Shown here one piece after another: positions 10,847 through 62,820 of a DNA stretch of 64,000 nucleotides. The notes beneath the pieces were generated by a model, which saw only the letters and a list, made by a program, of their open reading frames with translations, was not told where the DNA came from and ran no database searches. Made by a program: the position numbers and the translations under genes. The stretch's first letter is position 1. Each line of letters opens with the position of its first letter. Source of the stretch: Candidatus Latescibacterota bacterium (GTDB lineage Bacteria > Latescibacterota > UBA2968 > UBA8231); the NCBI GenBank assembly GCA_007136405.1, contig SLHA01000013.1, positions 17,368 through 81,367 on the forward strand. The letters are read 5' to 3'.

Positions 10847-10850
10847 GCCC

Positions 10851-16539: not shown

Positions 16540-16713
16540 ATTCCTCTTGATTTATAATAGGCCAACATACGAGGCGCCAACATGCTGGTGCTAAGAAAAA
16601 AACGGAACCTGCGGTGTCAAGACGGCCCCGGGGGGCGCCTTGTGTCGGATATCGTGCCGCGTATATTTGCTCCCATCTTGATGAAACGCCGAAAAAAGAG
16701 GAGACAGGCAGAT

Positions 16714-17727: not shown

Positions 17728-17962
17728 CCGGGCCTTGCCTACCGGCGTCACCGCAGGCTCTGTAGAAGACGCGCCAGCCGAAGATGGGTTCTGGTGGTAC
17801 GGAATTTGCGGGGCGGCAGCTTTCCGTACCGCCAATACCGAACCGACCTGGCGCTGGACGCCTCAGCCAGTCAGCGAGGCCGGCCGCAGACCGGGTCAGA
17901 GGCGTGAGGCTCTCGCTCACCCCGAGCCCGCCGGTGCTTCCGGGCGCCACCGCAGACCGAAG

Positions 17963-18961: not shown

Positions 18962-19353
18962 GGTCCGTATCTCCGTATTCTGGGTATTCTGGGATGCAGC
19001 TGCACGACTGGTTGACGCGGGGGCCAGGCGAGTTTTGTTTAGGACACCCGCCGGCGAATTGCCCGTTGAATGTCGACGCTGGCGGGCAGCCAACCCAAGA
19101 GGCAGCAGAGGCGTGACAGGAAGAGATGGAGGGTGCCGGTGTCACCACACGGGGGGCAACAGGGGAGCCCGCGGCGCCGACGCCAGAAGCGCGGAGCATA
19201 ATAGCCTGATACGTGCATGGTGTCAAGGGTCGGCGACGAGACTGGCCTGATTCAGGGCAATTCCGGAATTACGCCTCTTCAGCGGTCGCCGGAGATGCCT
19301 CTGCCGCTGCGCCACCCCAACCTGCTCGATCACCTTCCGGAGGAGCTGCGTAC

Positions 19354-22115: not shown

Positions 22116-22175
22116 CCGTTCCGGAATGCTTGCGTCCGGGAGCCCATCCCGCTGTTAGCAGAGGAGGATACACCG

Positions 22176-23345: not shown

Positions 23346-23372
23346 CCCAGCCATCCCAACGCTCGCCCGCTG

Positions 23373-23479
23373 TCCACGTAAACGCCGAATCGTTTGGCGC
23401 TGCCGCCTCTGGACCGGCCGGAGGGTGGTCTGGCTCGGATGCTCGTCCACGCAAACGCCGCATCGTTTGGCGCTGCCGC
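23373..23479. repeat. two 34-bp direct repeats (TCCACG(T/C)AAACGCCG(A/C)ATCGTTTGGCGCTGCCGC) 39 bp apart
   Basis: Directly visible in the convergent serC / Gfo intergenic region. Each has an internal imperfect palindrome AAACG...CGTTT. Confidence 0.85.
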
Positions 23480-23503
23480 ATTCCAGTGGTTCGGCTGGGT
23501 GCC

Positions 23504-24544
23504 TCAGCAGAACAGATGGTCTTCGAGCGGCAGTTGGACCTGTGCCCCGGTGGTCGCGGACCGCAGGCCCGCTTCCATGATCTGCTGGGCGTCGTAGGCC
23601 ACATCGGGCGACGTCTGGAACCCGGGTTCAGCCCCTGTCAGGACACAGTCGACGAAGTGTTCGGCGGCACAGCGCTGTCCGGCTGGCAGCGTGTCCAGCG
23701 GCACGGTTGCGGCGGTCTTTCCGCCGCGAGGGAACAGGCGCAGTTCCTGTCCGGCCACCAGGGTGCCCTCCGTGCCATACAAGACCAGATCGTGAGGCGG
23801 GAAGTGCGGTGCGGCTTCGGTCCACGTCATCTCCAGCCGGCACAAGGCGCGCGGGTAGCGCATCACCAGAATGCCGTTGTCGTCCACCGGCAGGTGCGTC
23901 TTGACCAGCCGTCCGGCCATGCCGAAAACGCTGGACGGAAGGCACCCCAGAAAGAGCACGCACAGGCTGGCGCCGTAGCCGCTGTAGTCATTGAAGGCTC
24001 CGGCACCGTTTTGCCGGGGGTCGAACAGAAAACCGCAGAATTCCGCCGAACAGCCCAGTTCATCGGGACCACAGTGACCGCCACGCCAGGTCATCTGCCA
24101 TATTCTGCCGAGTGCCCCTTCCTGCACCAGCCGATAGGCGGTCCGCAGCCGCGGTGACCAGGCGGTGGGCCAGTTGATCATGAGCGTGATGCTGTGACGC
24201 CGGGCCGCGGTCAGCATGCGGGAGGCTTGCGGCAGGGTGGCAGCCATGGGTTTCTCCGCCATGACCGGTACACCCTGCCGGGCGCAGAGTTCGACGATGT
24301 CTGCGTGCTGGTTGGTGGGTGAGAAGGCGAATACCGCATCCGGCTGATCGGCATCCAGCAGTTCCTGGTAACCGGCATAGACCCGCTTGCAGCCGGTTCG
24401 CTCGACGAAGCGCTGGCGCAGCGCGGGGTTGGCATCCGCGCCGGCCACCAGAGCGGCGCGATCCAATACGGCCAGATCGTCCAGGTTGCTCCACAGGTGG
24501 TCATGAGCCATGCCGAGTACGGCGATTTTCAGTTTGTCTGCCAT
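23504..24544 (-). CDS. Gfo/Idh/MocA-family oxidoreductase
   Basis: MADKLKIAVLGMAHDH Rossmann start and EKP motif. AGGAGA Shine-Dalgarno upstream. The ORF-track N-terminal extension was rejected. Confidence 0.75.
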   Translation of the reverse strand: MADKLKIAVLGMAHDHLWSNLDDLAVLDRAALVAGADANPALRQRFVERTGCKRVYAGYQELLDADQPDAVFAFSPTNQHADIVELCARQGVPVMAEKPMAATLPQASRMLTAARRHSITLMINWPTAWSPRLRTAYRLVQEGALGRIWQMTWRGGHCGPDELGCSAEFCGFLFDPRQNGAGAFNDYSGYGASLCVLFLGCLPSSVFGMAGRLVKTHLPVDDNGILVMRYPRALCRLEMTWTEAAPHFPPHDLVLYGTEGTLVAGQELRLFPRGGKTAATVPLDTLPAGQRCAAEHFVDCVLTGAEPGFQTSPDVAYDAQQIMEAGLRSATTGAQVQLPLEDHLFC

Positions 24545-24771
24545 TGCCCGGATCTCCTGGAAACAGGTGGGTTGAACCCCGGCCAATCTAGTGCCGCGGC
24601 ATCGGCTCGGCAAGGTGTCCGCCGGGTCGTGCTCTTCGACGCTCATGATGGCCGCGGATCGTCCGGACAGAGGCACGGAGGATGGGCGGGAAAGCGTTGA
24701 CGGAAAGTGTTTATGGCCACGGTCCGCACGGCGTGGCTGGGGCGCCCCTCTACCGCAGTACCAGGCGGCCG

Positions 24772-25923
24772 CTACTGGGTCAGGGCGACGCTGAAGCCGT
24801 CTGAATCCCGCAGGCCTTTGGCAAAGACATCCGCCTCCACGTCAAAGCCCGCCCCAGGTGTATCGGGCACCACAAGGCAGCCTTCGATCATTTTCCAGCC
24901 GTCCGTCACGAGACCCGGCACCCGTACCGGTGCCGCCTCCAGCAGGGCGTAGTTGGGGATGGCAGCGGCGAAATGGGCATGGTGGAATCGTTCGATGAAA
25001 CTGCCCCATGCGTGCGGGCCGCACAGGACTCCCCAGCCCTCCAGCCGGGCCGCGGTGCCGCGCCACCAGGTCAGGCCGGCCATGCGGAAGTCGTGCTGCA
25101 CAACATCGATGAGTCCCTCCTGTACCAGGTCGAAAAAGCAGGGTGGCGGGGCGAACTCGCCGTCGGCGACCAGGGTGTTCCATCCGTGGTCAACGATGAA
25201 CTGCTTCAGCGCCAGGTTGAGCGGCCGGTCTTCGTGAAAGGGTTCTTCGAACCAGTGAATGCGCGCTCCGGCACAGGCCTGAAGCAGCGCTTGCGCCGAG
25301 TTCAGCGTGTTGCCCATGTTGGCATCTATCATGATTTTCGCCGCGTCACCGGCTGCAGCGCGAACTGCGTGGACGACCAGGGCATCGCGGTGCAGGCCGG
25401 CCTCCGGGGTCATCCAACGGGCACCGCGCCCAACCTTGACCTTGAAATGGCGGTAGCCGTGCTCCTGGCCTGAGGCCACTTCCTCCGTGAAAATGCGTTC
25501 GGCTTCGCGGTCCGATGCTTCCAGGTCATCGATGTAGATGGAGCCATCGTAGATTTCCACCCGCCGATGCCCGCGTCCGCCCAGCAGACGGTATAAAGGC
25601 AGCTCCATAGCGCGAGCCACCAGATCCCAGAGGGGCAGGTCCATGCGGCGACCGGGCTCCAGCACCCCATCGGGCCACCGGAAGCACTCGCGCAATTCCC
25701 GCCCGAGCAGATTCCCGGCCTGATCGAGGCGGATGTCGGACCAACCCAGGCCGACGGCGCCACCGGAGGTATGCACCCGAACGACGGGATCGCGCAGGTG
25801 GGGGCCGTGCGTGGGAATTCTGGCGTTGTAGCCGATACTCCGCGGCCGTGTGCCGCGTAATACGGCTTTCTCGATACGGACGATGCGTTCCCGCAGGACG
25901 GGCTCTACGGCGCTTTCATCCAT
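24772..25923 (-). CDS. mandelate racemase / muconate-lactonizing-enzyme family (enolase superfamily) protein
   Basis: MR/MLE capping and barrel domains with KVKVG and IMIDANMG metal-ligand context; sugar-acid dehydratase-like. Specific substrate unknown. Confidence 0.75.
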   Translation of the reverse strand: MDESAVEPVLRERIVRIEKAVLRGTRPRSIGYNARIPTHGPHLRDPVVRVHTSGGAVGLGWSDIRLDQAGNLLGRELRECFRWPDGVLEPGRRMDLPLWDLVARAMELPLYRLLGGRGHRRVEIYDGSIYIDDLEASDREAERIFTEEVASGQEHGYRHFKVKVGRGARWMTPEAGLHRDALVVHAVRAAAGDAAKIMIDANMGNTLNSAQALLQACAGARIHWFEEPFHEDRPLNLALKQFIVDHGWNTLVADGEFAPPPCFFDLVQEGLIDVVQHDFRMAGLTWWRGTAARLEGWGVLCGPHAWGSFIERFHHAHFAAAIPNYALLEAAPVRVPGLVTDGWKMIEGCLVVPDTPGAGFDVEADVFAKGLRDSDGFSVALTQ

Positions 25924-49639: not shown

Positions 49640-50156
49640 GAAAACAAAGTTGAATCAGGATGGGCGCATGTCGCGCATGAGAATCACTATCCACAGAATA
49701 TGGCCCGATGCATCAACAGAGGCAAGCAGTGCACATCTGATGGGCGGCAACCGGGTGTTTACTTCTGGCCGCTGTACAGGGCGTGTCCTATTTTCTATGA
49801 GGTTGCTGCCGCCGTGCCGGGCAGACGGCCTGTGCTGTCCCGGCGCCCGTCAACCGCCACCTTCGTCGTTGTGATCCGTATCTGATGACCCGTATGAGGC
49901 CCGGTGTGTTCCCGGCACTGTCCGGCGACTGCCTGCGTGCATCCGGCTATGGCCGGTGTCCAGCTCTTGTACCTGGCCAGAATGGCGCGGCCATTCCGGC
50001 GGGTGCCGGTCTGGGTCCGGACGCTGGAAAGGCTTACATCGACGCATATGCAGCCCGCCTCGTGGTGCAATCGGCGGGTATGCCTGGAGACAGCCCAACG
50101 GCGGTCAGTCATGCGGTGTCTGGACACGCATGCTGTCCGGGGAAAGTGTGGCGTTC

Positions 50157-53100
50157 ATGATCACGGAGTTCTACCAGGGTCGTACCATTCTGCTGACCGG
50201 AGGCAGCGGTTTTCTGGGCCAGGGACTGGCAGCCAAGATATTGCGCGATCTGCCGGGCATCGAACGGCTGTACCTGCTGCTCCGCAGCCGGCGCCAGACG
50301 GACGGTAGTCTGCTGACCGCAGCCGAACGCCTGGAGTCGGAGATTTTTCGGGCGGACGTCTTCGATCGCTTTCGCCGCGAAGAACCGGAGCCGTTCGCGG
50401 CGGCCAAAGCCCGGACCCGCGCCATCGAGTTCGACATGGGCGCTCCCGGACTGGGCCTCGCTGACGCGGACCGGGATGAACTGGTGCGGCATGTGGACTG
50501 CGTCATCGGTGCCGCCGCGACAGTCGTCTTCGACGAGCCTCTGGACCTGGCGGTGCAGGTCAATACGCTCGGACCACAGCAGCTGCTGGAACTGGCCCGG
50601 CAGTGTGACAAGCAGGTTGTCTTCGTGCACGTGTCGACGGCGTATGTCAGCGGGCAGTTGCAGGGCCAGATCGTCGAGGCGCCCTTGCCGGAGGATCGGA
50701 CGGTACGTCAGTTGATGGCGCGATCGCAGCCGGCGGCTAGCTTCGATCCAGCAGCGGAGGTAACGGCCTGCCTCGAGTACGGCAGACAGGTGCGCGAACT
50801 GGCCGAAACTCCGGCAAAAGAGGCTGAATTCAGCCGGCAGATTCTGTCACAGCATCACAACCACAGCCTGTCGCCGTCCCGCCTCGCCAAACTGGTCGAA
50901 GACCGGCGCAAGCGCTGGATCGAACGTCAACTCACCCGCGAAGGCGTCCGGCGGGCTCAGGCGCATGGGTGGAATGACGTCTACACGTTCACCAAGGCGA
51001 TGGGCGAGCAGCTGCTGACGCGCGAGCGCGGTGATGTGCCTCTGGTGATCGTGCGGCCCAGTATCGTGGAGAGCAGCCTGTCGGATCCGCAACCGGGCTG
51101 GGTTTTCGGGCTCAAGGTGGCTGATCCGTTGATCGTCGGATACGGCCGCGGTTTGGTACCGGATTTCCCCACGCCACGGAACGTGGTCATGGATCTGGTT
51201 CCGGTGGACGTCGTAGTCAACACCATCCTCGCCGCCGCCACGCAAGCAAGCTCTACAACGGTGCAGGTGTACCACGCCGCCACCAGCGGCGTGTGCCCGT
51301 TGACCATGCAGCAGATGTACGACTATGTGCGCAGCTATTTTCAGGAGTATCCCATGCGTGGCCGGGACGGTTCCACTCCGGAACTGCCCGAATGGACCTT
51401 TCCCAGCCCATGGCTGTTCAAGCTCCGTTTCAAACTGCGGTATTTCTATCCGTTGCGGGCGCAGCAGTGGCTCCTGGCCAGGCTTCCCACCAGACTGGCG
51501 CCTGTGGCCCAGAAAAGGCGGCTGGCCGCGCTGGAAAAACGTCTGCTGCGTGTCCTGTATTACACCGAGTTGTTCGGACCCTATACCCGGTTGAGCTGTC
51601 GCTATGTGACCACGCGGGCGCAAGCCCTGTTCGAATCACTCCCGGCCGACGACAAACTGCGTTTCAACATGGATATCCGGCGCCTCGAATGGCGCAGCTA
51701 CATCCGTGAGGTCCATATCCCGGGTCTGCGCCGTCATGTCCTGCGCGAGGAACAGACCGAAGAAACGCTTCTCAGAGAGGCTCCGGAAGAGCTGGGTGAC
51801 GAAGAAGAGCAGTGGCGTATCGAAGAGAGCATCCGGACCATTCCTGACCTGATTCGCTGGTCCTGTGCCCGTTACGGAGACGCCGTGGCCCTGCGCGCCA
51901 CGGGGAAGACGCAAGGTGCGCGCCAGTACACCTATACTCAGCTGCAACAGGCCATAAGCGACATGGGGGCATATTGGGAATCCAGCGGATTGGCTACCGG
52001 GCAGCGCGTCCTGCTGTGCGCTGAAAACAGCCCGGAGTGGGTCATCGCCTATATGGCGGCCTCATGCCTGGGGTTGGTGGTGGTGCCTGTTGACCCGCAG
52101 ACCCCAGGCCGTGAAGTGTGGGCCCTGGCAGCGTTCACCGGCGCTCGCGCCTTACTGGTGTCGGTTTCGGTCTGGGACGGACTGGCACCCACGTTGACGG
52201 ATGCTTCGCCTGCCGTATTCGGGTTATCGGACGGCGGGCTGCGGCTGCACGGCGCCGAACCGTCTCCTGCCGGCGCTCGCAAGGGAGACTGGCATCCGCC
52301 TGCGGTCGAGCCGGATCAACTCGCCTCGATCGCCTTTGTCTCCGGGACCCTGGTCAGCCCCCGCGGGGCCATGCTCAGTCACCGCAACTTCATCTCCGAC
52401 GTCATGGCGCTGGCGGAAATACACCGGCTGGGAGCTGATGACCGCGTCCTTTCGCTCCTGCCGTTGCACCACTGCCTGGAGTTCACCGGCGGAATGTTGT
52501 TGCCCTTGCTGGGCGGCGCCTCCATCACTTATCCGGGTGAACCCAACAGCAGGATCATTCTGGACGCATTGCGGCAACACGGCATCACGGCCGTTTTGAC
52601 GGTCCCGCGTCTGCTGAAGATCCTGGTGGACCGGATCGGCCGGTTGGTGGCCACGGCCGGACGCGGGGAGAGTATCCCTGAACTGGACGCCCTCCGGTCC
52701 GTTCGGCTGCTGGTGAGCGGCGGAGCGCCGTTGCCGCCGGTCGTTTTCCGGGAATTCGAGCGTCTGGGGATTCTGGTGCATGAGGGATACGGGCTGACCG
52801 AAGCCGCACCCATCGTCACGGTGTCACCGCCGGGAGAACCGCGGGCGGGATCGGCAGGCAAAGCCATACCCGGCGTCGAACTGCGAATTCGCCACCCGGA
52901 TGAACAGGGCATCGGTGAGATTCTGGTGCGTGGCCCCATGGTGATGCAAGGCTATCTGAACCAGCCGGAACTGACGGCATCCGTTCTGCGGGATGGCTGG
53001 CTGCATACGGGTGACCTGGGACGAGTCGACGCGGATGGTTACCTGTGGATCACCGGTCGCACCAAGCAGCTGGTGGTGACCGGTGCCGGTAAAAACGTCT

Positions 53101-54401
53101 ACCCCGAGGAAGTGGAGATTCTTTATGCGGATCTACCCCACGTGGTCGAACTGGCCGTAGTCGGAGTGCCTTCCCCGCGAACGCTCAGTGAGGAAGTCCA
53201 GGCGGTGGCCGTGGTGCGCAGGACGGAAAGCGATGATTGGCAGACGGTGGAGACCGAGGTCAGGGCTGCGACCCAGCGTCTGGCCATCTCCATCCCGTCT
53301 CATCAGCGCATTCAACGGCTGCACCTGTGGCAGCGGCCTCTTCCCAGGCTGGACAATGGTGCAGTGGACCGCGCTGCTGTGCAGCTGGAGCTGGAGTACG
53401 AGACCGAAGCAGCGGTTTCCGGCACAGCGCTCCCGGAGCTGGCGGACTGGGAACTGGGGGTGTGTGACCGCATTGCCAGAATGACCGGGCTGACCCGGGA
53501 GCATGTCGCGGCGCACGCGGATGCACCCCTGGACACCCTCATGGATTCGTTGATGGCCATCGAGTTTGCGTCTGTCCTGGAAAACCAGGTGGACGGGCGC
53601 AAGCTGCGCATCGATCGCGCCCAGATGACGCTGCGGCAGCTGCTGGATCATCTGAAACCGCAACTGAAGGACGGGAAGCACGGCCATTGGAGCGCAGCCG
53701 GAGCGCCGGACTCGGTGCGATACTGGTCGCAAGTGCTGGCCGATGCGGACCGGAAATCACCCCGGGACACCGTGCCACCGGGCCACACCGGCGGCTGGAA
53801 TTCCACCCAGAACGCGCTTTGGCGGGCACTGGGACTGGTGTTTGCCAAGCGGCTGCAGGTAGTTGTCAGTGGCGCCGAGGAACTGCCGGATACCGGGCCC
53901 TATCTGCTGGCTGCCAGTCCTTGCCGAGCCATGGATGCGCTGGCTCTCGTGGCGGCGGTTCGGCCCCATATCGAGCATTGCCACCTGCTGGCCATCAATG
54001 ACATCCAGGTAAAAGCGCGATGGCAGGACTGGCTGGTACGGTACCTGTTGAATGGCGCCGCCCTGGACCACGCCGAAGAGATGCGGGATACGCTCATGCT
54101 GGCCCGGGAGCGGGTGGGAGTCCGGCGTCCTCTGCTGGTTTTTTCCGGGGAGGGCCGCGCGGGCACCAGTCAACCGCAGCCGTACCGGGCAACGGTGGGG
54201 CTGCTGGCGTGCGAACTCGACCTGCCGGTGGTGCCGGTGTACATAGATCTGTCCCGGCGGCGGCGCAGCCTGCGTATAGGTCCACCGCTCCATCCCGCAC
54301 CGTTCAGGGACCGTGCCGACCTGCTCACCCCCTATGAAGTGTACCAGGAAATAGCCGCATCCCTGCAGCGCCGGATCCGGATGCTGCAGGAATCAGCCTG
54401 A
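50157..54401 (+). CDS. multidomain lipid-biosynthesis enzyme: fatty-acyl reductase (NAD_binding_4/FAR) + AMP-dependent acyl-CoA ligase + carrier-protein-like motif + PlsC/LPLAT-like acyltransferase (ElbD-like architecture)
   Basis: N-terminus ILLTGGSGFLGQ...YTFTKAMGE (Rossmann + YxxxK) followed by a FAR_C-like region. Middle: SGTLVSPRGAMLSHRN (degenerate A3 motif), YGLTEAAP, GWLHTGDLG. LDTLMDSLMAIEFAS is a phosphopantetheine-site-like DSL motif. The C-terminal ~210 aa are acyltransferase-like. Start at MITEFYQG; GTG 50148 is the alternative. Confidence 0.8.
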   Translation: MITEFYQGRTILLTGGSGFLGQGLAAKILRDLPGIERLYLLLRSRRQTDGSLLTAAERLESEIFRADVFDRFRREEPEPFAAAKARTRAIEFDMGAPGLGLADADRDELVRHVDCVIGAAATVVFDEPLDLAVQVNTLGPQQLLELARQCDKQVVFVHVSTAYVSGQLQGQIVEAPLPEDRTVRQLMARSQPAASFDPAAEVTACLEYGRQVRELAETPAKEAEFSRQILSQHHNHSLSPSRLAKLVEDRRKRWIERQLTREGVRRAQAHGWNDVYTFTKAMGEQLLTRERGDVPLVIVRPSIVESSLSDPQPGWVFGLKVADPLIVGYGRGLVPDFPTPRNVVMDLVPVDVVVNTILAAATQASSTTVQVYHAATSGVCPLTMQQMYDYVRSYFQEYPMRGRDGSTPELPEWTFPSPWLFKLRFKLRYFYPLRAQQWLLARLPTRLAPVAQKRRLAALEKRLLRVLYYTELFGPYTRLSCRYVTTRAQALFESLPADDKLRFNMDIRRLEWRSYIREVHIPGLRRHVLREEQTEETLLREAPEELGDEEEQWRIEESIRTIPDLIRWSCARYGDAVALRATGKTQGARQYTYTQLQQAISDMGAYWESSGLATGQRVLLCAENSPEWVIAYMAASCLGLVVVPVDPQTPGREVWALAAFTGARALLVSVSVWDGLAPTLTDASPAVFGLSDGGLRLHGAEPSPAGARKGDWHPPAVEPDQLASIAFVSGTLVSPRGAMLSHRNFISDVMALAEIHRLGADDRVLSLLPLHHCLEFTGGMLLPLLGGASITYPGEPNSRIILDALRQHGITAVLTVPRLLKILVDRIGRLVATAGRGESIPELDALRSVRLLVSGGAPLPPVVFREFERLGILVHEGYGLTEAAPIVTVSPPGEPRAGSAGKAIPGVELRIRHPDEQGIGEILVRGPMVMQGYLNQPELTASVLRDGWLHTGDLGRVDADGYLWITGRTKQLVVTGAGKNVYPEEVEILYADLPHVVELAVVGVPSPRTLSEEVQAVAVVRRTESDDWQTVETEVRAATQRLAISIPSHQRIQRLHLWQRPLPRLDNGAVDRAAVQLELEYETEAAVSGTALPELADWELGVCDRIARMTGLTREHVAAHADAPLDTLMDSLMAIEFASVLENQVDGRKLRIDRAQMTLRQLLDHLKPQLKDGKHGHWSAAGAPDSVRYWSQVLADADRKSPRDTVPPGHTGGWNSTQNALWRALGLVFAKRLQVVVSGAEELPDTGPYLLAASPCRAMDALALVAAVRPHIEHCHLLAINDIQVKARWQDWLVRYLLNGAALDHAEEMRDTLMLARERVGVRRPLLVFSGEGRAGTSQPQPYRATVGLLACELDLPVVPVYIDLSRRRRSLRIGPPLHPAPFRDRADLLTPYEVYQEIAASLQRRIRMLQESA

Positions 54402-54497: not shown

Positions 54498-55358
54498 TCA
54501 CCTGGCCATGGCGTCTGTCCGGGAGGCCCAGTGTGCCGCTGCCAGACGCTTCCAGTCATCGCAACCGGTCACCGTGCACTGGGGAAACGCTCCTGCCGGC
54601 AGCGCCGGAGCCTCTGCTCTGGCCGCAACGGGCAGCACGCCATCTCTTTCCTGCCACCAATGCGGTGCAGCAACGCTGCCCTCGTAGCAGTACAACAGGT
54701 GCAGCGGCTCGCTGGCATGAAGGTTGGTAACCTGGTGCCACTGATCCCCGGGGACGAAGACAGCTGCCGGAGGCGCTATCTCGCGCACCTGGTCTCCGAT
54801 GCACATCTCAGCGCGGCCGCCGAGCAGCAGGTATACCTCGTTCTGTCGGTCCGGATGATTGTGCCAGGGCACCTGACCACCGCGTGGCGACAGGATGGAC
54901 AGGCCCGCCGTGAAACCCGCAGCTTTGACCGGAGATCCTCCGTTGGTGATGGAGCGTCCCCAGCGGCATGCCGGAAAACGGATCCCTTCCATGCTGCCGA
55001 GATCGGCTGTGTCCGCTTCGCTGGATGGCGGCCGCTGCGGGCTGGCCAGATACAGGAATTCGATGGGGCCTTCGTCTTCCGCTGCCAACCTCAGGGCACC
55101 GGCCGACGGCAGGCTTCGGGTGAGGAGCGGCGTCAGCGCCGCGGATCCGGCCCGGTCAATCAGCCGGCCATGGCCCGAGACCCCGTACAGGACCTGTTCC
55201 CGGGCGTCGGCCGGCGGGACCAGTTGCACAGGTGCGGAGCCCTGAACACGACACAGCCACAGGTAGAAACCCGCCTGGCTGTTGGGGCTGCCCGGTCCGG
55301 CCACGGAACGCGTGACGATGCCTTCCAGCGCGGCGGTATGTAGATCCAGTACTTGCAC
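54498..55358 (-). CDS. bicupin-domain protein
   Basis: Two cupin-like segments; the second has WHNHPDRQNEVYLLLGGRAEMCIGDQ...PGDQWHQ. 12-bp gap from the upstream gene. Confidence 0.6.
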   Translation of the reverse strand: MQVLDLHTAALEGIVTRSVAGPGSPNSQAGFYLWLCRVQGSAPVQLVPPADAREQVLYGVSGHGRLIDRAGSAALTPLLTRSLPSAGALRLAAEDEGPIEFLYLASPQRPPSSEADTADLGSMEGIRFPACRWGRSITNGGSPVKAAGFTAGLSILSPRGGQVPWHNHPDRQNEVYLLLGGRAEMCIGDQVREIAPPAAVFVPGDQWHQVTNLHASEPLHLLYCYEGSVAAPHWWQERDGVLPVAARAEAPALPAGAFPQCTVTGCDDWKRLAAAHWASRTDAMAR

Positions 55359-55370
55359 TGTGTGCCTCCA

Positions 55371-56534
55371 TTACAGCAGGGAACGAACGTTGCGGATGGT
55401 CGCGGGCGTACCCATGGCAGCAGCCGATGCCGCCGTCTGGTTGGCTGTTTCGACCCCCTGGGCGCCATCCAGCAACGAGGCGGGATTCTCCGAACCCGTG
55501 ACCACGTGACGCAGGAACAATTCCCACTGGTGCCGGAAGGCATTTTCGGGGACGGCGGCCTGTTCGTACAGCTCCCATCCCTCCGGAAAATCCTCCCGGC
55601 TGGCCGTGTCGGGGTCCCAGGCTATGGACGGTGTGCGCTCATTGGAGATCCAGTAGCAGCGATCCAGGTATACTTCGGCCGCGCCCTCTGTGCCCTGGAT
55701 ACGAATTTCCAGCAGGCCGCGTTTGCGCGGACGACGGCACCAGGAAGATACGGTGGTACAGACGACCGGTTCCGGGCTCAGGGCGCTGTCCGCTTCAAAG
55801 GTGGCATAGACGGAGTCCTCGGCCGTGGTAGGCACGGGCTGGCCATTGCGTGTCCGTTGCTTGATATGCAATGCCGCATGGGCGCTGACCCGGCTGGGCT
55901 GGCCGACCAGGTGCTTGAGCAGGTAATCCCAGTGGGACACCATGTCCAGTATGATGCCGCCACCCTCCGCCTTGTCGGCATTCCAGTCGGGACGCGTCCC
56001 GTCGTCGGGATGGACGAAGTAGCCGAAATCGAGGAGGACATGCAGGGGTTGACCGATCAGCCCGCGATCGATCAGATCCATGGCCTGAGCCGGTCCGCAC
56101 AGGTAGCGTTTGTCCTGCACCACACCGCCACACACGCCTCGCTGGCGGCAGCGGCGCACCAGATCCAGTGATTCGTCCACACTCAAGGTCAGCGGTTTTT
56201 CCGTGTACACATGCATGCCGCTGTCTATCGCTCTGGTCAGCCCCTCATGATGCAGTTTGGTAGGACTGCCTTCGAAATACACGGCATGATCCGGCGGGTT
56301 ACGAAATACAGCCTCTACATCCGTGCTGTAGGGATAGCCGAACTGACGGGCCAGCGGCGCCAGGGTTTCCTCGCGCCGCCCCAGCAGGAACGGTGCCGGC
56401 ATGATGCGGTCGCCGTTGTCCAGATTCACACCACCGGCTTGGATGATCGACGCCAGGGATCTCTCCAGGTGCTGCCGGCGGGTCATCCTGCCCGTGGCGG
56501 AACGCAGAAAAACGGGGATCTCGATGGTGGCCAT
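55371..56534 (-). CDS. Gfo/Idh/MocA-like oxidoreductase with divergent N-terminus (no GxGxxG)
   Basis: NPPDHAVYFEGSPTKLHHEGLTRAIDSGMHVYTEKP is the family helix/EKP region with C-terminal domain. The N-terminal 70 aa lack the glycine-rich loop. Confidence 0.6.
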   Translation of the reverse strand: MATIEIPVFLRSATGRMTRRQHLERSLASIIQAGGVNLDNGDRIMPAPFLLGRREETLAPLARQFGYPYSTDVEAVFRNPPDHAVYFEGSPTKLHHEGLTRAIDSGMHVYTEKPLTLSVDESLDLVRRCRQRGVCGGVVQDKRYLCGPAQAMDLIDRGLIGQPLHVLLDFGYFVHPDDGTRPDWNADKAEGGGIILDMVSHWDYLLKHLVGQPSRVSAHAALHIKQRTRNGQPVPTTAEDSVYATFEADSALSPEPVVCTTVSSWCRRPRKRGLLEIRIQGTEGAAEVYLDRCYWISNERTPSIAWDPDTASREDFPEGWELYEQAAVPENAFRHQWELFLRHVVTGSENPASLLDGAQGVETANQTAASAAAMGTPATIRNVRSLL

Positions 56535-56740
56535 GGGTGTCCTTTCTGTTGCTGCGACCGGCGGGCCGCGGTGGATAGTGCTCGAGGTTGAACTACGTTG
56601 TGCCGCCGGAGAGCATCCGGGGACGCCCCGACGCGGATTCGAAACGCCCGGGAACAGGACCGTGACAGGACGTCGCGCTTGCCGGGGTGCCCCAGGGGTG
56701 GCGCTCTATGCGGCCAGGTGCCGGTATCTGCCCTTCCGGG

Positions 56741-57820
56741 TCACGGGCTCCACCGGGCAATCCGGTCCAGCGCGGCAGCGGCGCTTTCCTGGTCGCTCAC
56801 GCCGCTCACCAGCAACCAGGCCCCTTCTGGACGCAAGGCCTGGAAAACCTCCGGCAGCTCCCGCACCGAAACGTTGAGACAGAACGACTTGCCGCGCTGC
56901 TGAATGCGGCGGTACACCGGCACCCACTGGCGCCAATGGTCCCGGCCCGCGCCGGGCACCCACTGGATCGCATGGATCTGAGGCAGATCGAGCAGTATAT
57001 CCAGGTAACGCAAGGCCTGGGGACCGTCGAGATGGTAGATGCACCGGTCCATGGGCTCGCATTCGCGCACGATCCCGGGTAGAAAGATGTCCTGGAACAT
57101 GCGGTCGGTGATCATGCAGGAGAAATCATTGGACGGCACGTGAAACTTGCCGCGGCAGGTAGCCGGCAGCCAGGTGGTGCTCGGCATCCCGGCGGCGCTC
57201 AATCGTCGATGGTAAAAGTCGTACACCTGAAGGAAATCCGTGGTGATCCGCTCTACCAGGGAGCGCACCTCCGCGGGATGTTCGATCATGTCCAGGCACA
57301 GTTGCTGTGGATCGCGGAACGCGGCGACGGCATCACCACCGCCGTGCAGATCCGTGTACCCCACGATGAACCGCCCCCGCCCGGCTTCGATCAGGGCGTC
57401 GGTCATCTCCGTGAGCTTGGCGCCGTACGGTCCCGTCAGGTCCAGTTGCAGTTGATCGAGGGCGGCCTGGCCCCAATCATGCAGGATAGGCAAGCTCCAG
57501 GAGGTGGTTTCTCCGAACTCCAGGGGACAGCCGTACAATGCGGAGAAAATCTCCGGTCCCAGATTGGGGTAGGTGACGGGCAGAGCATCGGCATGAAAGC
57601 AGGTGTTGGCCATGCGGGAACAGGCCTGCTCGACCACCCACTGGGTGTCCAGCCAGCGGTCGCGCAGCGTGGCATGGTGGCGCGGTGCGGGCGGGGGGAT
57701 CTGGTTCCGTTGCGGCCGAGGAAAGGTCATCGACACCAGGGGGCGATCGATGATCTGAGCGTCCCACCACGCTTCGTACCGGTCAAGTACCGCATCGAAA
57801 TCCGGTTTGCATTCGAACAT
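56741..57820 (-). CDS. hypothetical protein, possibly UroD-like (uroporphyrinogen decarboxylase/methyltransferase) fold
   Basis: Weak resemblance (…IYHLDGP..., length) to the UroD family. No strong motif. Confidence 0.4.
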   Translation of the reverse strand: MFECKPDFDAVLDRYEAWWDAQIIDRPLVSMTFPRPQRNQIPPPAPRHHATLRDRWLDTQWVVEQACSRMANTCFHADALPVTYPNLGPEIFSALYGCPLEFGETTSWSLPILHDWGQAALDQLQLDLTGPYGAKLTEMTDALIEAGRGRFIVGYTDLHGGGDAVAAFRDPQQLCLDMIEHPAEVRSLVERITTDFLQVYDFYHRRLSAAGMPSTTWLPATCRGKFHVPSNDFSCMITDRMFQDIFLPGIVRECEPMDRCIYHLDGPQALRYLDILLDLPQIHAIQWVPGAGRDHWRQWVPVYRRIQQRGKSFCLNVSVRELPEVFQALRPEGAWLLVSGVSDQESAAAALDRIARWSP

Positions 57821-57846
57821 GCGCTACGTTCCTTCGGTTGGCAAGA

Positions 57847-58986
57847 TTATGGGTGGGGCATGACGGGTTCGGCAGGTGATTTGAGACCGTGTCCCGTAAG
57901 TATACAGACGACGACCGCACCAGCCGGCAAAGGCATGTGGTGTTCCAGTCGCAGCAGACCGGGCCAGATGACGGCACTGGTGGGCTCGACGCCGAAGCCG
58001 GCCTGTGCCAGGGCGCGTTGGCCGGACAGGATATCGTCCTCATCTACGGTTACGACGGTTCCACGGGTACGGCGCAAGGCCTGCAGGACCTCTTTCCCGC
58101 GGGCGGGCGCCGGCAGGGCGATACCGGAGGCCACCGTAGGCCGCGAAGGAAACACCGGGGCAACCTGTTCGGCACCGGCGGTGAAGGCCCGGTACACGGC
58201 GTCCGCCAGACCGGACTGCACCGCCACCAGGCGCGGCAGGCGCGGTATTCGGCCAGCCCGGCGCAGGTCGCAGAAACCGCGGTACAGTCCCAGGAGTATA
58301 CTGCCCGCTCCTACCGGACAGACCACGGCAGCCGGCGCCACCCAACCGAGTTGCTCGGTGATCTCGAAGGCCATGGTTTTGACGCCGACCAGAAACAGGG
58401 GATGCCAGAGGTGCGAGGCATACACGGCGCCGGTGCGGGCGAGATATTCCCGCAGAGCCCGGGTGGCTTCTTGCCGCGGGCCCGGCACCCGTTCCAGGGC
58501 CGCTCCCGTGAGGGTGATCTGGGCCAGTTTGGCACCGGCGGTAGAGTCCGGACAGAAAACCCGCAGGTGGATGCCGGCACGGGCCGCATAGGCGGCCAGC
58601 GCGGCTCCGGCATTTCCCGACGAGTCCTCGACCGCGGCACGGACACCGGTCTGCCGCAGGTAGGACATCAGCACTGCCGCACCGCGATCCTTGTACGAAC
58701 CCGTCGGTAACTGGTATTCGCACTTGACCAGAACCTGCCGGCTGCCTGCCTGCAGCGGTAGAAGGGGGGTCATGAATTCCCCCAGCGACACCGGGGTGCC
58801 GACCTCTGGCAGGGCCTCCCGGTAGCGCCACATGGTCGGCGGCCGCCGGGCCAGATCGGTGGGCACGAATTCTGGCGTGGTGACCCCCTGATAGCTCAGC
58901 GGCCCGCGGCAGTCAGGACAACGGGGGTCGCGCGGAAGCTGGTCCAGTGTGGCGCCGCACACCTCACATGCGAAGGAACGGCTCAT
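57847..58986 (-). CDS. threonine-synthase-like PLP-dependent enzyme (TrpB/ThrC superfamily) with N-terminal Cys4 zinc ribbon
   Basis: CEVCGATL...CPDCRG zinc ribbon. PTGSYKDRGA (cf. TGSFKDRG, PLP-lysine). GNAGAALAAYAA glycine loop. Confidence 0.7.
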   Translation of the reverse strand: MSRSFACEVCGATLDQLPRDPRCPDCRGPLSYQGVTTPEFVPTDLARRPPTMWRYREALPEVGTPVSLGEFMTPLLPLQAGSRQVLVKCEYQLPTGSYKDRGAAVLMSYLRQTGVRAAVEDSSGNAGAALAAYAARAGIHLRVFCPDSTAGAKLAQITLTGAALERVPGPRQEATRALREYLARTGAVYASHLWHPLFLVGVKTMAFEITEQLGWVAPAAVVCPVGAGSILLGLYRGFCDLRRAGRIPRLPRLVAVQSGLADAVYRAFTAGAEQVAPVFPSRPTVASGIALPAPARGKEVLQALRRTRGTVVTVDEDDILSGQRALAQAGFGVEPTSAVIWPGLLRLEHHMPLPAGAVVVCILTGHGLKSPAEPVMPHP

Positions 58987-59022
58987 GATTCCTCCAGGAT
59001 GAGTTCCTGGCCGGCGGTGGTT

Positions 59023-59796
59023 TCAAGCTAGCGGTTTCAGCTGTTCCAGCACCCGGGTCACCAGGATCTCGTTGCCCGCTACCAGGCCGCCATGGAGAAC
59101 GATGTCCGGCTGATTGTAGGTGCGTGTCCGACCACCCGGAAACTGCAGGTCCCCCCCGGCCTCCCGTACCAGAAGATCGCCGGCGCACACGTCCCATTCG
59201 TTCCGATCCTGCCGGCACACGTACAGATCGCTCCGGCCTGCCGCTACCAGGGCGAGCTGGTACGCTGTATTGCGCGCCGGCCGGATGTCGCGAAAGACCG
59301 TTCGCATACGGTGGCAGATCCCCATGCCGTTACGACTGCGGCCGATACGGGCGACGGCACACCGGGTTTCAGTGATCTCCGTGCAGAAGATGCGGCGGCC
59401 GTTCAGGAAAGCACCTCCGTGACGCAGCGCGACGAACATCTCAGCGGTTGCCGGGTTGTGAACGGCGCCCAGAATGGGGTTGCCATGCCGGACCAGCGCC
59501 ACCGATAGCACGGGTACCGGTTCTGGCGTGCCCTGCACGAATGCGTCCGAACCGATCACCGGAGCGACGATCCAGACATGGTCACAGTGCAGGCGTTCAG
59601 CGGTGTTCGCTGTCTGCCAGGTCAACCAGCCGCAACCGGGATGGATGGGATGCAGCGACTCTCTCAGGCAGGTCAACGCATCGGCGCGGGCGGAAGTTGA
59701 CGGCAAGACCCCCATGCCGAGAACCCGGGGCTCCCCGCACAACACCTTACCCGCGATCTGTACCGCCTGGATTACCGCATCGAGGATGGCGCGCAC
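59023..59796 (-). CDS. inositol-monophosphatase/CysQ-family protein with substituted metal-ligand motifs (possible pseudoenzyme)
   Basis: Overall IMPase-family collinearity and an intact EWDVCAGDLLVREAGG motif. The DPIDGT motif reads APVIGS and the upstream GEE region is divergent. Confidence 0.6.
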   Translation of the reverse strand: MRAILDAVIQAVQIAGKVLCGEPRVLGMGVLPSTSARADALTCLRESLHPIHPGCGWLTWQTANTAERLHCDHVWIVAPVIGSDAFVQGTPEPVPVLSVALVRHGNPILGAVHNPATAEMFVALRHGGAFLNGRRIFCTEITETRCAVARIGRSRNGMGICHRMRTVFRDIRPARNTAYQLALVAAGRSDLYVCRQDRNEWDVCAGDLLVREAGGDLQFPGGRTRTYNQPDIVLHGGLVAGNEILVTRVLEQLKPLA

Positions 59797-59893: not shown

Positions 59894-59926
59894 GTGGGAA
59901 AAAAAATCCCCACATCCCTGTGGGGA
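59894..59926. other. overlapping inverted repeats GTGGGA-A8-TCCCCAC and CCCCAC-ATCCCT-GTGGGG
   Basis: Directly visible in the divergent intergenic region 59797..60135. Confidence 0.5.
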
Positions 59927-60135: not shown

Positions 60136-60810
60136 ATGAGAAGCTTGTCAGCGGCGCTGTTCGTCGCCCTGGTGTGGTGCCCGGCCCGGATGGCGCTCGG
60201 GGATGTTTCGGTGGACAGCACACGCGCGGTGCTGCTGCAGATGCAGCAGCAGGCGATCCGGGGTGAAATCGTCCTGAGCAGCGGACAGCGGGCCATGGTT
60301 CGGGTGGACACGGTGCGCGCAGACAGTGTGGTGGTGCGCCAGCGGCTGGGGCCGCTGTACCAGCAGTATGCCGTGTACGCTCTGGCGGATGTGGATTCGG
60401 TCTACAGGCACCCTCTGTCGCCACGGCAGGTCGAGCCGCCGGCATCCAAGCTGTCCATGCCGACCGCACTGGGGCTCGAGCTTCTGGTTCCGGGAGCCGG
60501 ATACCTGTACGCCGGGGAGAAGGGTACGGCACTGAGCCTGGCAGGGATGTCGGTCGCTGCCGCCGTGACGGCTCTGGCCACGGGGACAGACGGCGCCGCC
60601 GCCTGGATCCCGGCGGTGGCCTGGATGAAGATCGCTGCCATCCTCGATGTGCGAGACCGGGTACGGGCCGTCAATCACAGCGGTACCGTGCACCATGGAC
60701 GGGCACACGCCTCGGCGCAACCGGACCTTTACCGGAACGGACTGCCTTCCGGTTATCCCGCCTTCCGGATACGGTGGTCGCTCAGCGTCGGTCGGCGCGG
60801 TCCGTTCTGA
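60136..60810 (+). CDS. hypothetical secreted/membrane protein
   Basis: Signal-like N-terminus MRSLSAALFVALVWCPARMALG and a hydrophobic region near residue 150. No domain recognised. Confidence 0.4.
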   Translation: MRSLSAALFVALVWCPARMALGDVSVDSTRAVLLQMQQQAIRGEIVLSSGQRAMVRVDTVRADSVVVRQRLGPLYQQYAVYALADVDSVYRHPLSPRQVEPPASKLSMPTALGLELLVPGAGYLYAGEKGTALSLAGMSVAAAVTALATGTDGAAAWIPAVAWMKIAAILDVRDRVRAVNHSGTVHHGRAHASAQPDLYRNGLPSGYPAFRIRWSLSVGRRGPF

Positions 60811-60868: not shown

Positions 60869-61996
60869 TCAGTCGCGCAGCGCCTCGGCATAGCGCACCC
60901 CTGCGTCGATATACAACAGCCAATTTCGGATCTCGGCCGGTGTCGGATCGACGTTTTCCATGTACCCCGAACTGGGGCACAGGATGAACCGCTGGCCCCG
61001 GCCCGCGTCCAGCGCCTGCCGGATCTTGTCCTGCAGCTCGGGTGCGCTCGCGGTCATCAGGTCGTGCGTCTCGATGTTGCCTTCCAGCCCCATCCGTCCC
61101 TGAACCGTATCGAAGGCTTCCGCCAGGCTGATATCACCCATGGGCGGGGGTTCGATCGGATTGAGCACATCGATACCCATGTCGGCGAACCGCTGCAGAA
61201 CGGCGCGCATGCGTCCGTGCGCGTGTACCCATACGCGTCCGCCCGCCTGGTGTATGCGCGTGATCAGCGGGGCATCGAGCTGGAAAACATAGCGCTCGAA
61301 GGCCGACGGGGGCATCAGCGGCGGAATGCACAATTCGGGTCCGACCCAGCCGAACACGCCGCGGATGCCTGCGTCGATGGCTGCCTGAGCGTGCGCCTGC
61401 AAGCGGTGGCTGAACAGCTCCATGGCTTCCAGCAACAGATCCTCTGCTTCCAGACTCCATAACGCCAAAGATTCCGAGCCCATCAGGCGCTGCAGTCCGT
61501 ACATGGCGTGGTCCAGGGAAAACACCGGCAGGCCCGCATCGCCGAGTTCGCGGTCGAGACGCCAGTGAGGCGAAGCGTCGAAGGGATGGGGCTCGTACGG
61601 CATGGAGAGCAGCCGGCGGATATCCGCCGGCTCTTTCAACAGGTGTTCCCGGATGTATCCCGGCCGGCGACAGGTGCTGGCACGAAAGACCTCCTGCAAG
61701 TCTCCTTCAGGGGTGTGATAGGTGGTGATGCGCAACTCCCAGGCAGGGTCTTCGGTGGGCTCTATGCGGGAGTCCACGAGCTGGGAAGCGAAACGGCCGC
61801 AGTACAGGTTGAACGGGGAGCCGGTATGACGAAACAGGTCCGTCATGTCCACCGCGCGGTCCCGAACCGGCTCGAAGGCCGGGTGTATGCAGGGATCCTG
61901 TCTGGAGCCCGCGCCCCAGACCTTGACAGCGGGGCGATCCGGCGTCCGGCCGTGGAATATGGCGGTCAGTCGCTCTCTGCGGGTCATCGATACCAT
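60869..61996 (-). CDS. uroporphyrinogen-decarboxylase (UroD)-family protein
   Basis: Start MVSMTRRERLTAIFHGRTPDRPAV matches the UroD-like N-terminus; C-terminal GIDVLNPIEPPPMGDISLAEAF. The ORF-track N-terminal Arg-rich extension was rejected. Confidence 0.6.
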   Translation of the reverse strand: MVSMTRRERLTAIFHGRTPDRPAVKVWGAGSRQDPCIHPAFEPVRDRAVDMTDLFRHTGSPFNLYCGRFASQLVDSRIEPTEDPAWELRITTYHTPEGDLQEVFRASTCRRPGYIREHLLKEPADIRRLLSMPYEPHPFDASPHWRLDRELGDAGLPVFSLDHAMYGLQRLMGSESLALWSLEAEDLLLEAMELFSHRLQAHAQAAIDAGIRGVFGWVGPELCIPPLMPPSAFERYVFQLDAPLITRIHQAGGRVWVHAHGRMRAVLQRFADMGIDVLNPIEPPPMGDISLAEAFDTVQGRMGLEGNIETHDLMTASAPELQDKIRQALDAGRGQRFILCPSSGYMENVDPTPAEIRNWLLYIDAGVRYAEALRD

Positions 61997-62052: not shown

Positions 62053-62820
62053 TCAGCCGTGGCGCGCGGCGTCCATATTGCGCTGCAGGCCCTGGATGAA
62101 GTGAGTGATGACGGCTCCAATGATTACCAGGTCGAAACCGGCCTTGAACCAGCGTCGGGCATCCTCGCCGCTGCCGGTCACCATGCCGGCCCAGCGCCCC
62201 CCGGCGTGAGCGGCGTCGCACACCCGTTGAATCGCTTCCAGATGAGCGGGTGCTTCCATGTACCGATCGACCAGTCCCATGGTATGTGCCAGGTCATAGG
62301 GCCCCACCATGAGTGCATCCAGCCATGCATGGGTGGCGGCTGTCGGCGCGAATTCAACGCCCTTGGGGGTCTCGATCTGGCCCATGAGAAACTGGTTGTC
62401 CTCCAGTTGCCGCCAGTCGGCGGAGCCGGTGCCATCCACGGCCATGATGGCTGGGCCGCCCATGCCATGGCGTCCTCTGGGCGGACAGAAGGCCGCGGCC
62501 TGCAAGGTGTCCAGTTGCTCCTGGTTTTCGACCCAGGGCACCATGAGTCCGCCGGCGCCCAGGTCCAGCGCCCGTTTGATCGGCGCCATGGCGCACCGCG
62601 CCGGACGAATCAACAACGGCAGGTCCAGCAGCCGTGCCGTGCGGCAGAGCTCCTCGCCGCGTTGCTGACCGGGAAAACCGTGCTCCAGGTCCAGTACCAG
62701 GAAATCCACACCCTGCTTGCGGCATATCTCCAGGTATCCGGGCCAGAAGTCGAAAGTCATCAGCAGTCCCACGGCCTGGTGGCCGCGGCGTAGTTTGTCC
62801 TTGAGCGAACTCGCCAGCAT
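62053..62820 (-). CDS. HpcH/HpaI-family aldolase (2-keto-3-deoxy sugar-acid aldolase-like)
   Basis: LKDKLRRGHQAVGLLM...DFLVLDLEHG...MVPWVEN...GQIETPKGV is the family pattern. Start at MLASSLKDKL. Confidence 0.7.
   Translation of the reverse strand: MLASSLKDKLRRGHQAVGLLMTFDFWPGYLEICRKQGVDFLVLDLEHGFPGQQRGEELCRTARLLDLPLLIRPARCAMAPIKRALDLGAGGLMVPWVENQEQLDTLQAAAFCPPRGRHGMGGPAIMAVDGTGSADWRQLEDNQFLMGQIETPKGVEFAPTAATHAWLDALMVGPYDLAHTMGLVDRYMEAPAHLEAIQRVCDAAHAGGRWAGMVTGSGEDARRWFKAGFDLVIIGAVITHFIQGLQRNMDAARHG

Follow-up and report, generated by a model that had tools for sequence, protein, structure and literature searches.

Homologues of threonine synthase (ThrC) have been mislabeled before: MetM, which makes homocysteine from O-phosphohomoserine with a thiocarboxylated carrier, is homologous to ThrC and is frequently annotated as ThrC by mistake (bioRxiv 10.1101/2024.10.14.618325; PMC12172450). 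A threonine-deaminase side activity has been reported for both canonical and cyanobacterial ThrCs (PMC12172450), and RidA is reported to clear the enamine and imine products of pyridoxal 5'-phosphate (PLP)-dependent dehydratases (PMC3565831). Here we describe a row of five genes that includes a ThrC-like PLP enzyme and lies in a 64,000-nucleotide stretch of DNA from a Candidatus Latescibacterota bacterium (assembly GCA_007136405.1, contig SLHA01000013.1, positions 17,368 to 81,367 of the forward strand), which is referred to below as the window. An earlier note on this DNA had proposed that the row could encode one pathway for a phosphorylated substrate. The five maximal open reading frames (ORFs) are all on the minus strand with intervening gaps of 36, 26, 206, and 12 bp, exactly as that note had given them, and the public gene calls on identical contigs (the metagenome-assembled genome [MAG] assemblies GCA_007129025.1 and GCA_003562965.1 as well as several metagenomes) are the same five genes. 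In the direction of transcription, the features of the row are as follows.

59023..59796, minus strand: IMPase/CysQ-family protein, 257 amino acids (aa), metal-binding motifs lost, likely a pseudoenzyme (PF00459 and alignment).
57847..58986, minus strand: zinc-ribbon ThrC-like PLP enzyme, 379 aa, of a noncanonical clade (PALP, 233 bits; best PDB matches are threonine synthases).
56741..57820, minus strand: protein with a predicted UroD/MtaA fold, 359 aa, of a widespread family without sequence-family assignment (AlphaFold 2 and Foldseek).
56535..56740, no strand: 206-bp intergenic gap between the UroD-fold and Gfo genes, where relatives have an opposite-strand SDR gene.
55371..56534, minus strand: Gfo/Idh/MocA oxidoreductase, 387 aa, of the small subfamily around 3oqb, glycine motif degenerate (PF01408, PF02894, PF22725).
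54498..55358, minus strand: cupin protein, 286 aa, with a C-terminal metal-binding cupin and a poorly conserved N-terminal half (PF07883).

We hold, with somewhat more confidence than doubt, that three units make up this row, as a mosaic specific to the lineage that deletions have packed together, and that it is not one dedicated five-enzyme pathway. The first unit would be the CysQ/IMPase-family gene, whose product has lost its catalytic metal ligands in this species. The second would be made up of the ThrC-like and UroD-fold genes, and the third of the Gfo-type oxidoreductase and the metal-binding cupin, which may form a sugar-type oxidation/isomerization pair of unassigned substrate. Within the second unit, the ThrC-like enzyme keeps the threonine synthase scaffold, PLP lysine, and zinc ribbon and carries an SSGNAG loop that is presumably like those of CysK and serine dehydratase. 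We infer the independence of these units and, for the ThrC-like enzyme, the following chemistry: its substrate would be a nonphosphorylated amino acid, either threonine or serine or else a beta-substituted aspartate such as 3-methylaspartate, and an elimination would lead through an enamine/imine to a 2-oxo acid, most likely 2-oxobutanoate destined for isoleucine synthesis. Such a 2-oxo-acid-forming elimination would explain the coupling of the ThrC-like gene to IlvD, methylaspartate ammonia-lyase (MAL), and RidA genes in relatives.

The IMPase-like protein matched PF00459 with 93 bits against a cut-off of 27 in the Pfam scan and was 45 to 50% identical to CysQ- or IMPase-annotated proteins of Latescibacterota and Gemmatimonadota MAGs. 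Twelve aligned relatives carry the motifs GWLSEET, WIVDP(I/M)DG(T/S), and WDVCAGD. The window protein has GWLTWQT and WIVAPVIGS in place of the first two and retains WDVCAGD, so that the metal-binding motifs EE(T) and DPxDGT are not kept (TWQT and APVIGS, respectively). Within this alignment the loss was found only in the window and in the sister strain L174, whose counterpart is 88% identical, and an N-terminal segment is missing from the proteins of both. Judged from the alignment, the acidic metal ligands are gone, and the protein is likely a pseudoenzyme or the product of a decaying gene; its description in the earlier note as catalytically suspect was well founded. Between the window and L174 its dN/dS was 0.39, the highest of nine neighboring genes, yet below 1. 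At locus L175, where the ThrC-like protein is 69% identical to that of the window, the ThrC-like gene has an intact IMPase gene upstream of it, with three to four genes between the two, namely, a PRK-type kinase, CstA, a small unannotated ORF, and a flavin reductase, with CstA and the flavin reductase on the other strand. An opposite-strand flavin reductase gene also lies directly upstream of the ThrC-like gene in L086 and L009. Because these genes intervene in L175 and the flavin reductase holds the upstream position in L086 and L009, the 36-bp IMPase-ThrC junction of the window reads as a recent deletion and not as a conserved pairing, and it is by such a deletion that the IMPase-like gene was apparently brought next to the ThrC-like gene.

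The ThrC-like protein matched PF00291 (PALP) with 233 bits, and its best PDB matches were threonine synthases. The best NCBIfam matches were likewise threonine synthases, all of them below cut-off (TIGR00260, 130.2 against 167.1 bits; PRK08197, 249.7 against 303; the remaining thrC models also below theirs), and the best dehydratase model in NCBIfam reached 97 bits against a cut-off of 331, which places the protein outside the dehydratase equivalogs as well. Public sources label its relatives threonine synthase or generic PLP enzyme. Two features of the protein bear on its identity.

58909..58968, minus strand: zinc ribbon CxxC-x12-CxxC, residues 7 to 26, with C7, C10, C23, and C26 invariant in 31 family members.
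58375..58419, minus strand: loop ASHLWHPLFLVGVKT, residues 190 to 204, in place of the ThrC loop NSvNPxRxEGQKT.

The PALP match and the four invariant cysteines confirm the zinc-ribbon ThrC-like assignment made earlier. The loops were compared with those of five solved ThrCs (1uim, 2zsj, 6cgq, 2d1f, and 1e5x; the enzymes are from Thermus, Aquifex, Bacillus, Mycobacterium, and Arabidopsis) and in a mixed alignment with 26 family members. Three loops have been replaced that do not vary among 1uim, 2zsj, 6cgq, and 2d1f and are almost the same in 1e5x: NS(v)NPxRxEGQKT by ASHxW(H/N)PxFxxGxKT (ASHLWHPLFLVGVKT in the window), CASTGNT by EDSSGNAG, and PVGNAGN by PVG(A/H)GS. The replacement was present in the window protein and in all 26 aligned family members, which range from 38% to 100% identity. 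Conversely, the PLP lysine motif GSYKDRG aligned with the GSFKDRG of the five solved ThrCs, and the C-terminal motifs were conserved. We take the Asn, Ser, and Arg of the first loop to hold the phosphate of O-phosphohomoserine, and if this is right, the family cannot bind a phospho-ester in the canonical way. Nothing usable on ThrC phosphate-site residues or on zinc-ribbon ThrC paralogues was found in the literature searched. With a loop that does not vary among the solved threonine synthases replaced throughout the family, the suggestion in the earlier note of PLP beta/gamma-replacement chemistry on phospho-esters has no basis. Between the window (57847-58986) and L174 (5135-6274), the ThrC-like gene had a dN/dS of 0.315, compared to 0.06 to 0.15 for its neighbors other than the IMPase-like gene, a hint that constraint on the gene has been relaxed in this species, in which IlvD no longer adjoins it.

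In relatives, the ThrC-like gene occupies a fixed chromosomal place within the lineage, beside OYE, Lgt, and a giant fatty-acyl-reductase fusion (FAR), all three on the opposite strand, and beside DAGK and Mla genes. A true IlvD (dihydroxy-acid dehydratase) gene lies directly upstream of it in L088/89/93, L092, L094, and L090, which represent at least four taxa; the three copies scanned scored 699 to 713 bits against the TIGR00110 cut-off of 618. In L090 (8331-11119) the IlvD stop overlaps the ThrC-like start as TGATG, and in L179 (4766-7128) the gene of a true methylaspartate ammonia-lyase (TIGR01502, 429 bits against 286), itself preceded by TRAP transporter genes, overlaps the ThrC-like start as ATGA. 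These overlaps suggest, as far as gene layout can, translational coupling with two enzymes of branched C5/C6 acid metabolism. TRAP genes are also found directly upstream of the ThrC-like gene in L097, and a Liv-type ABC transporter is found downstream of it in L098. Approximately 65 distant loci from metagenomes (39 to 47% identity) were inspected, and in nine of them a RidA gene (PF01042) lies 50 to 165 bp away on the same strand, upstream in five and downstream in four (L100, L102, L118, L125, L132, L145, L149, L158, and L173). The coupling to isoleucine-pathway genes or RidA was found in relatives only, not in the window. Neither a hom nor a thrB neighbor was present at any ThrC-like locus inspected.

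The position of ilvD beside the ThrC-like gene resembles the ilvD-ilvA adjacency in E. coli. Because of the IlvD, MAL, and RidA partners and the deaminase side activity of ThrCs, the ThrC-like protein would be a deaminating lyase in 2-oxobutanoate/isoleucine metabolism. We extend this tentatively, and with considerably more doubt than confidence, to the zinc-ribbon family marked by EDSSGNAG and ASHxW(H/N)PxF as a whole, which may be a widespread PLP class in Latescibacterota-like and other uncultured lineages that makes 2-oxobutanoate (via the 2-aminocrotonate enamine) from threonine or from MAL-supplied 3-methylaspartate, thereby replacing IlvA or opening a mesaconate/methylaspartate route to isoleucine.

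No Pfam (E 0.01; no PF01208), NCBIfam, or PDB sequence match was obtained for the 359-aa UroD-fold protein, and a search of PDB sequences with the family profile gave chance matches only (E about 1). An AlphaFold 2 model built from 28 homologues had a pLDDT of 94, and Foldseek matched it to the MtaA-like methyltransferase structures 4ay8 (E 2e-8) and 4ay7 and to UROD with E 1e-7 to 1e-4 (TM 0.52 to 0.64). The predicted structure is thus a URO-D-type (beta/alpha)8 fold, and the earlier label of UroD-like stands at the level of the fold and fails at the level of sequence. There are more than 1,800 homologues, 60 to 70% identical across Anaerolineae, Latescibacterota, the PVC group, and others, and with a dN/dS of 0.06 against L174 this is the most constrained gene of the row. 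Synteny was scanned at 80 loci from other genomes in a one-genome-per-species collection. A ThrC-like gene was beside the UroD-fold gene at only two of the 80 (L009, Latescibacterota, and L010, Gemmatimonadaceae), and a Gfo or cupin gene was present at none. At 13 to 15 Anaerolineae loci, the UroD-fold gene lies between a GH130 phosphorylase/hydrolase and an MR/MLE dehydratase (e.g., L018, 9011-14572), with an NTP-transferase/phosphomannomutase (PMM) fusion and a CN-hydrolase nearby. From these contexts, the UroD-fold protein looks like an enzyme of carbohydrate metabolism whose reaction is unassigned. The family carries HxD at the position where we take the zinc motif of MtaA to be HxC. The label "trimethylamine corrinoid protein 2" that some sources give to the family looks like a misnomer. 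A core-MetE-type methionine synthase paired with a MetM-like ThrC homologue was considered and rejected, as there was no Meth_synt_2 match, MetE was not among the Foldseek matches at E of 1e-3 or less, and the contexts elsewhere are those of carbohydrate genes.

The Gfo protein has the domains PF01408, PF02894, and PF22725, conserves E112, K113, and P114 (EKP), and matched PDB 3oqb, an oxidoreductase from structural genomics whose function is unknown, over its full length with E 5e-70. Its glycine motif reads SATGRMT, compared to the subfamily consensus NGVTGRMG that is also found in 3oqb, in agreement with the earlier remark that it lacks GxGxxG; the L086 and L095 proteins have PATSRMT at this place. 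The GGGxxxDxxxH region (D..H) is kept. The 3oqb-like subfamily is small (62 representative clusters at E of 1e-30 or less). In the cupin protein, a single PF07883 (Cupin_2) match covers residues 156 to 222 with an HxH..E..H motif, and PWHNHPDRQNE and GDQWHQ are conserved among four orthologues. The N-terminal stretch of approximately 115 aa is poorly conserved and has no Pfam match, and a single-sequence model of the cupin protein had a pLDDT of 36 and was unusable, so that of the bicupin named in the earlier note the C-terminal cupin holds and the N-terminal half has no domain match. The Gfo-cupin pair was found in the window, L086, L095, and L174, and in L176 the order is reversed: a cupin of 156 aa lies upstream of a Gfo that is 58% identical, with 34 bp between the two. 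By gene order, this is the best-supported functional pair of the row. Separately, Gfo homologues of the 3oqb type that are 38% identical occur in tight Gfo-DUF993-AP_endonuc_2 clusters (L177, 287-3419; L178), an uncharacterized conserved trio.

The complete five-gene row is confined to the species of the window (L001-L005) and the sister strain L174 (dS approximately 0.14). The order of the ThrC-like, UroD-fold, Gfo, and cupin genes is kept in three related lineages, the window/L174, L086/87, and L095, and beyond these neither the five-gene nor the four-gene set was found in the 80 UroD-fold loci plus 80 ThrC-like loci. Clustering of the same gene set in several unrelated genomes was thus not found in these loci. 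The earlier note had stated that its proposal would fall if the genes were not syntenic in any related genome. This is the case for the row of five as a whole and for the IMPase gene, and only partly so for the other four. Arrangements around the ThrC-like gene were as follows (opposite, opposite strand; FAR, the giant fusion).

L088, L092, L093, and L094: RpiA, then further along IlvD and ThrC-like, followed by OYE (opposite), Lgt (opposite), and FAR (opposite).
L097: ThrC-like, followed by SDR (opposite), OYE (opposite), and Lgt (opposite).
L009: ThrC-like and UroD-fold, followed by OYE (opposite), Lgt (opposite), and FAR (opposite); Gfo and cupin absent.
L095: ThrC-like and UroD-fold, SDR (opposite; intact, 10282-11037, minus strand), Gfo and cupin.
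L086: as L095 with an SDR fragment in place of the SDR, followed by Lgt (opposite) and FAR (opposite).
Window: IMPase-like with motifs lost, ThrC-like, UroD-fold, Gfo, and cupin, followed by FAR (opposite).

No IlvD, OYE, Lgt, or SDR gene or remnant of one was found in the 64-kb window. The 206-bp gap, at the site where relatives have SDR, held no detected SDR remnant and is approximately 80% identical to the corresponding gap of L174. The simplest reading of these arrangements is that the UroD-fold gene and the Gfo-cupin pair were inserted stepwise into a conserved slot and that later deletions removed the opposite-strand genes, packing the row onto one strand. Co-transcription, which the earlier note had claimed, is plausible from the shared strand, the short gaps, and the absence of any terminator-like site within the row in a promoter/terminator scan; site counts in the scanned region were not above those of shuffled sequence. 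Co-transcription of the row in this organism is possible as a by-product of compaction. A GC-rich hairpin followed by T8 lies at 59907-59926 on the minus strand, between the IMPase-like gene and the divergent gene upstream of it; such sites are no commoner here than in shuffled sequence.

Several points weigh against the mosaic. In three lineages, with protein identity of approximately 55 to 70%, the four genes agree in order and strand, which could reflect function and not ancestry. With no terminator-like sites between them, all five genes of the window may well share a transcript and its regulation. Two strains carry an intact IMPase-like ORF, and its dN/dS is below 1, so the protein may have a noncatalytic role. 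For the ThrC-like chemistry, the assignment of the first loop to the phosphate site is presumed from T. thermophilus ThrC structures only, the MAL link was found at a single locus, and the RidA link was found in distant family members only.

The first two of these points lead to the view that the ThrC-like, UroD-fold, Gfo, and cupin genes, with or without the dead IMPase, form a real operon for a catabolic or small-molecule pathway acting, for example, on an amino sugar or a sugar-amino-acid conjugate, which is broadly the earlier proposal without its phospho-substrate. Besides the shared order and the short, terminator-free gaps, it draws on a neighborhood rich in sugar-acid genes (HpcH aldolase, URO-D, BNR_2, Amidohydro_2, and FBP aldolase) and on the HpcH, DHDPS-like, and PfkB genes found near the ThrC-like gene in L090. 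We consider it unlikely. The flanking FAR/Lgt synteny is common to all three lineages, which means that inheritance can account for their common gene order; in L095 the row is broken by an SDR gene on the other strand; the ThrC-UroD pair stands without Gfo-cupin in L009, and the two pairs are found apart elsewhere; and the usual partner of the ThrC-like gene is IlvD or MAL. Taken together, the loss of the IMPase ligands, the replaced ThrC loop, the IlvD, MAL, and RidA partners, the two UroD-fold loci of 80 with a ThrC-like gene, and the SDR that splits the row in L095 do not bear out one dedicated pathway for a phosphorylated substrate.

Two further alternatives concern the ThrC-like protein itself. 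It could be the housekeeping threonine synthase of the lineage, of the archaeal zinc-ribbon type with a divergent phosphate site, in which case the row would be a set of ordinary neighbors. Its best database matches, its PLP lysine and C-terminal motifs, the annotation of its relatives, and its conserved place beside the housekeeping genes RpiA, IlvD, and Lgt across the lineage are all in keeping with this. However, it falls below every thrC equivalog cut-off, the loop that is invariant in the five solved bacterial and plant ThrCs is replaced family-wide with STGNT and GNAGN changed too, hom and thrB were absent from every locus inspected, and RidA adjacency fits eliminases and not ThrC, all of which makes this explanation slightly less probable again than a real operon. 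The other alternative, which we regard as very improbable, is a beta/gamma-replacement synthase akin to MetM, cysteate synthase, or CysK/SbnA that makes an S- or N-substituted amino acid, which the UroD/MtaA-fold protein would then modify. The misannotation of MetM speaks for this, as does the EDSSGNAG loop, which we take to be like those of CysK and SbnA. The MtaA/MetE superfamily fold, which is predicted for the neighboring protein, serves alkyl transfer to thiols. However, no small MetO/ThiS-like carrier gene lies beside any family member inspected, and the window has no SAM riboswitch or other Rfam match (and no tRNA gene). MetM and cysteate synthase use phospho-esters, and the ThrC loop that presumably holds the phosphate is replaced here. 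The HxD of the UroD-fold family differs from the HxC presumed for MtaA, and that family is found in carbohydrate contexts elsewhere. Cysteate synthase as an identity for the protein was considered and dropped, with its model outside the 25 best NCBIfam matches.

As a new-pathway operon, then, the row does not hold up, which spares phospho-sugar and inositol phosphate assays. Its value lies in a large ThrC-like family whose members public sources call threonine synthase or generic PLP enzyme although they lack the loop invariant in solved threonine synthases. If these proteins are 2-oxobutanoate-forming lyases, then amino-acid pathway reconstructions for many uncultured phyla would have to be revised, with threonine synthase over-called and the entry step of isoleucine synthesis under-called. 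The locus also shows three enzymes in the course of shedding or altering their canonical motifs, with the IMPase dead, the glycine motif gone from the Gfo, and the ThrC homologue lacking that loop.

The genes that surround the row are as follows.

60136..60810, plus strand: divergent hypothetical gene, 224 aa, without a Pfam match, called on identical contigs.
60869..61996, minus strand: URO-D family gene, PF01208, 375 aa as called, upstream of the row.
62053..62820, minus strand: HpcH/HpaI-type aldolase, 255 aa as called, upstream of the row.
50130..54401, plus strand: giant fatty-acyl reductase/AMP-binding fusion, convergent with the row; within the lineage it anchors the conserved synteny around the ThrC-like gene.

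At L175 a 226-aa gene without a Pfam match has the same divergent position beside the intact IMPase gene; by its place it may correspond to the 224-aa gene of the window, which would then travel with the IMPase gene. The starts of the two upstream minus-strand genes are uncertain, since the maximal ORFs of the URO-D and aldolase genes run to 62221 and 62907, respectively, overlapping each other and extending past the called starts at 61996 and 62820. The fusion at 50130-54401 combines NAD_binding_4, Sterile, and AMP-binding domains, to which an acyltransferase domain is added in relatives, where the gene is conserved beside Lgt, DAGK, and MlaD/ABC_trans_aux genes; this suggests an unusual lipid module for a fatty alcohol, wax, or ether lipid. 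A second region of sugar-acid type, at 16582-25923, contains AP_endonuc_2, two further Gfo/Idh/MocA genes, an MR/MLE dehydratase, and an FAD-oxidase plus CCG/Fe-S pair that is glycolate-oxidase-like. Because two more Gfo genes, AP_endonuc_2, MR/MLE, and URO-D with an HpcH aldolase are found in the same window, such families are common in this genome, and the other families of the row are ordinary for a genome rich in sugar-acid genes.

Compared to class I threonine synthase (ThrC, EC 4.2.3.1), the ThrC-like protein shares the fold-type II PLP scaffold, at 30 to 35% identity over the full catalytic domain, as well as both the lysine motif GS(F/Y)KDRG and the TGxGLK of the C terminus, and we take an N-terminal four-cysteine ribbon to be a feature of archaeal ThrC too. 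It differs from ThrC in its three loops (STGNT to SSGNAG, PVGNAGN to PVGAGS, and NSvNPxRxEGQKT to ASHxW(H/N)PxFxxGxKT), in scoring below the thrC cut-offs, and in its neighbors, which are IlvD, MAL, and RidA and not hom and thrB. The serine/threonine dehydratases (IlvA, TdcB, and SDH) are of the same fold type and matched the family profile with E 1e-16 to 1e-23, and the SSGNAG-type loop is presumably like that of mammalian serine dehydratase. However, the protein is much nearer to ThrC, has no ACT-like regulatory domain, carries a zinc ribbon, and scores far under the dehydratase equivalog cut-offs. MetM and cysteate synthase are derived from ThrC, perform new reactions, and are routinely annotated as threonine synthase, but both use phospho-ester substrates, and neither a MetO gene nor a SAM riboswitch accompanies the genes here.

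The other members of the row stand in a similar relation to their nearest described systems. The predicted UroD-fold protein resembles UROD and MtaA (methylcobamide:CoM methyltransferase) in its TIM-barrel fold, with a TM of approximately 0.6 across the whole protein, whereas identity is approximately 10 to 13%, PF01208 is not matched, and the gene contexts are those of carbohydrate metabolism. With the IMPase/CysQ/SuhB family, the IMPase-like protein shares PF00459, 45 to 50% identity to CysQ-annotated proteins, and WDVCAGD, whereas the window protein is without EE(T) and DPxDGT. SuhB as a Nus factor, a molecule name found among the PDB matches, offers a precedent for a nonenzymatic role by analogy only. 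The Gfo protein is like the 3oqb-type Gfo/Idh/MocA enzymes in its EKP motif, its GGGxxxDxxxH region, and its full-length match and is set apart from them by its degenerate glycine motif and by the pairing of the window clade with a cupin.

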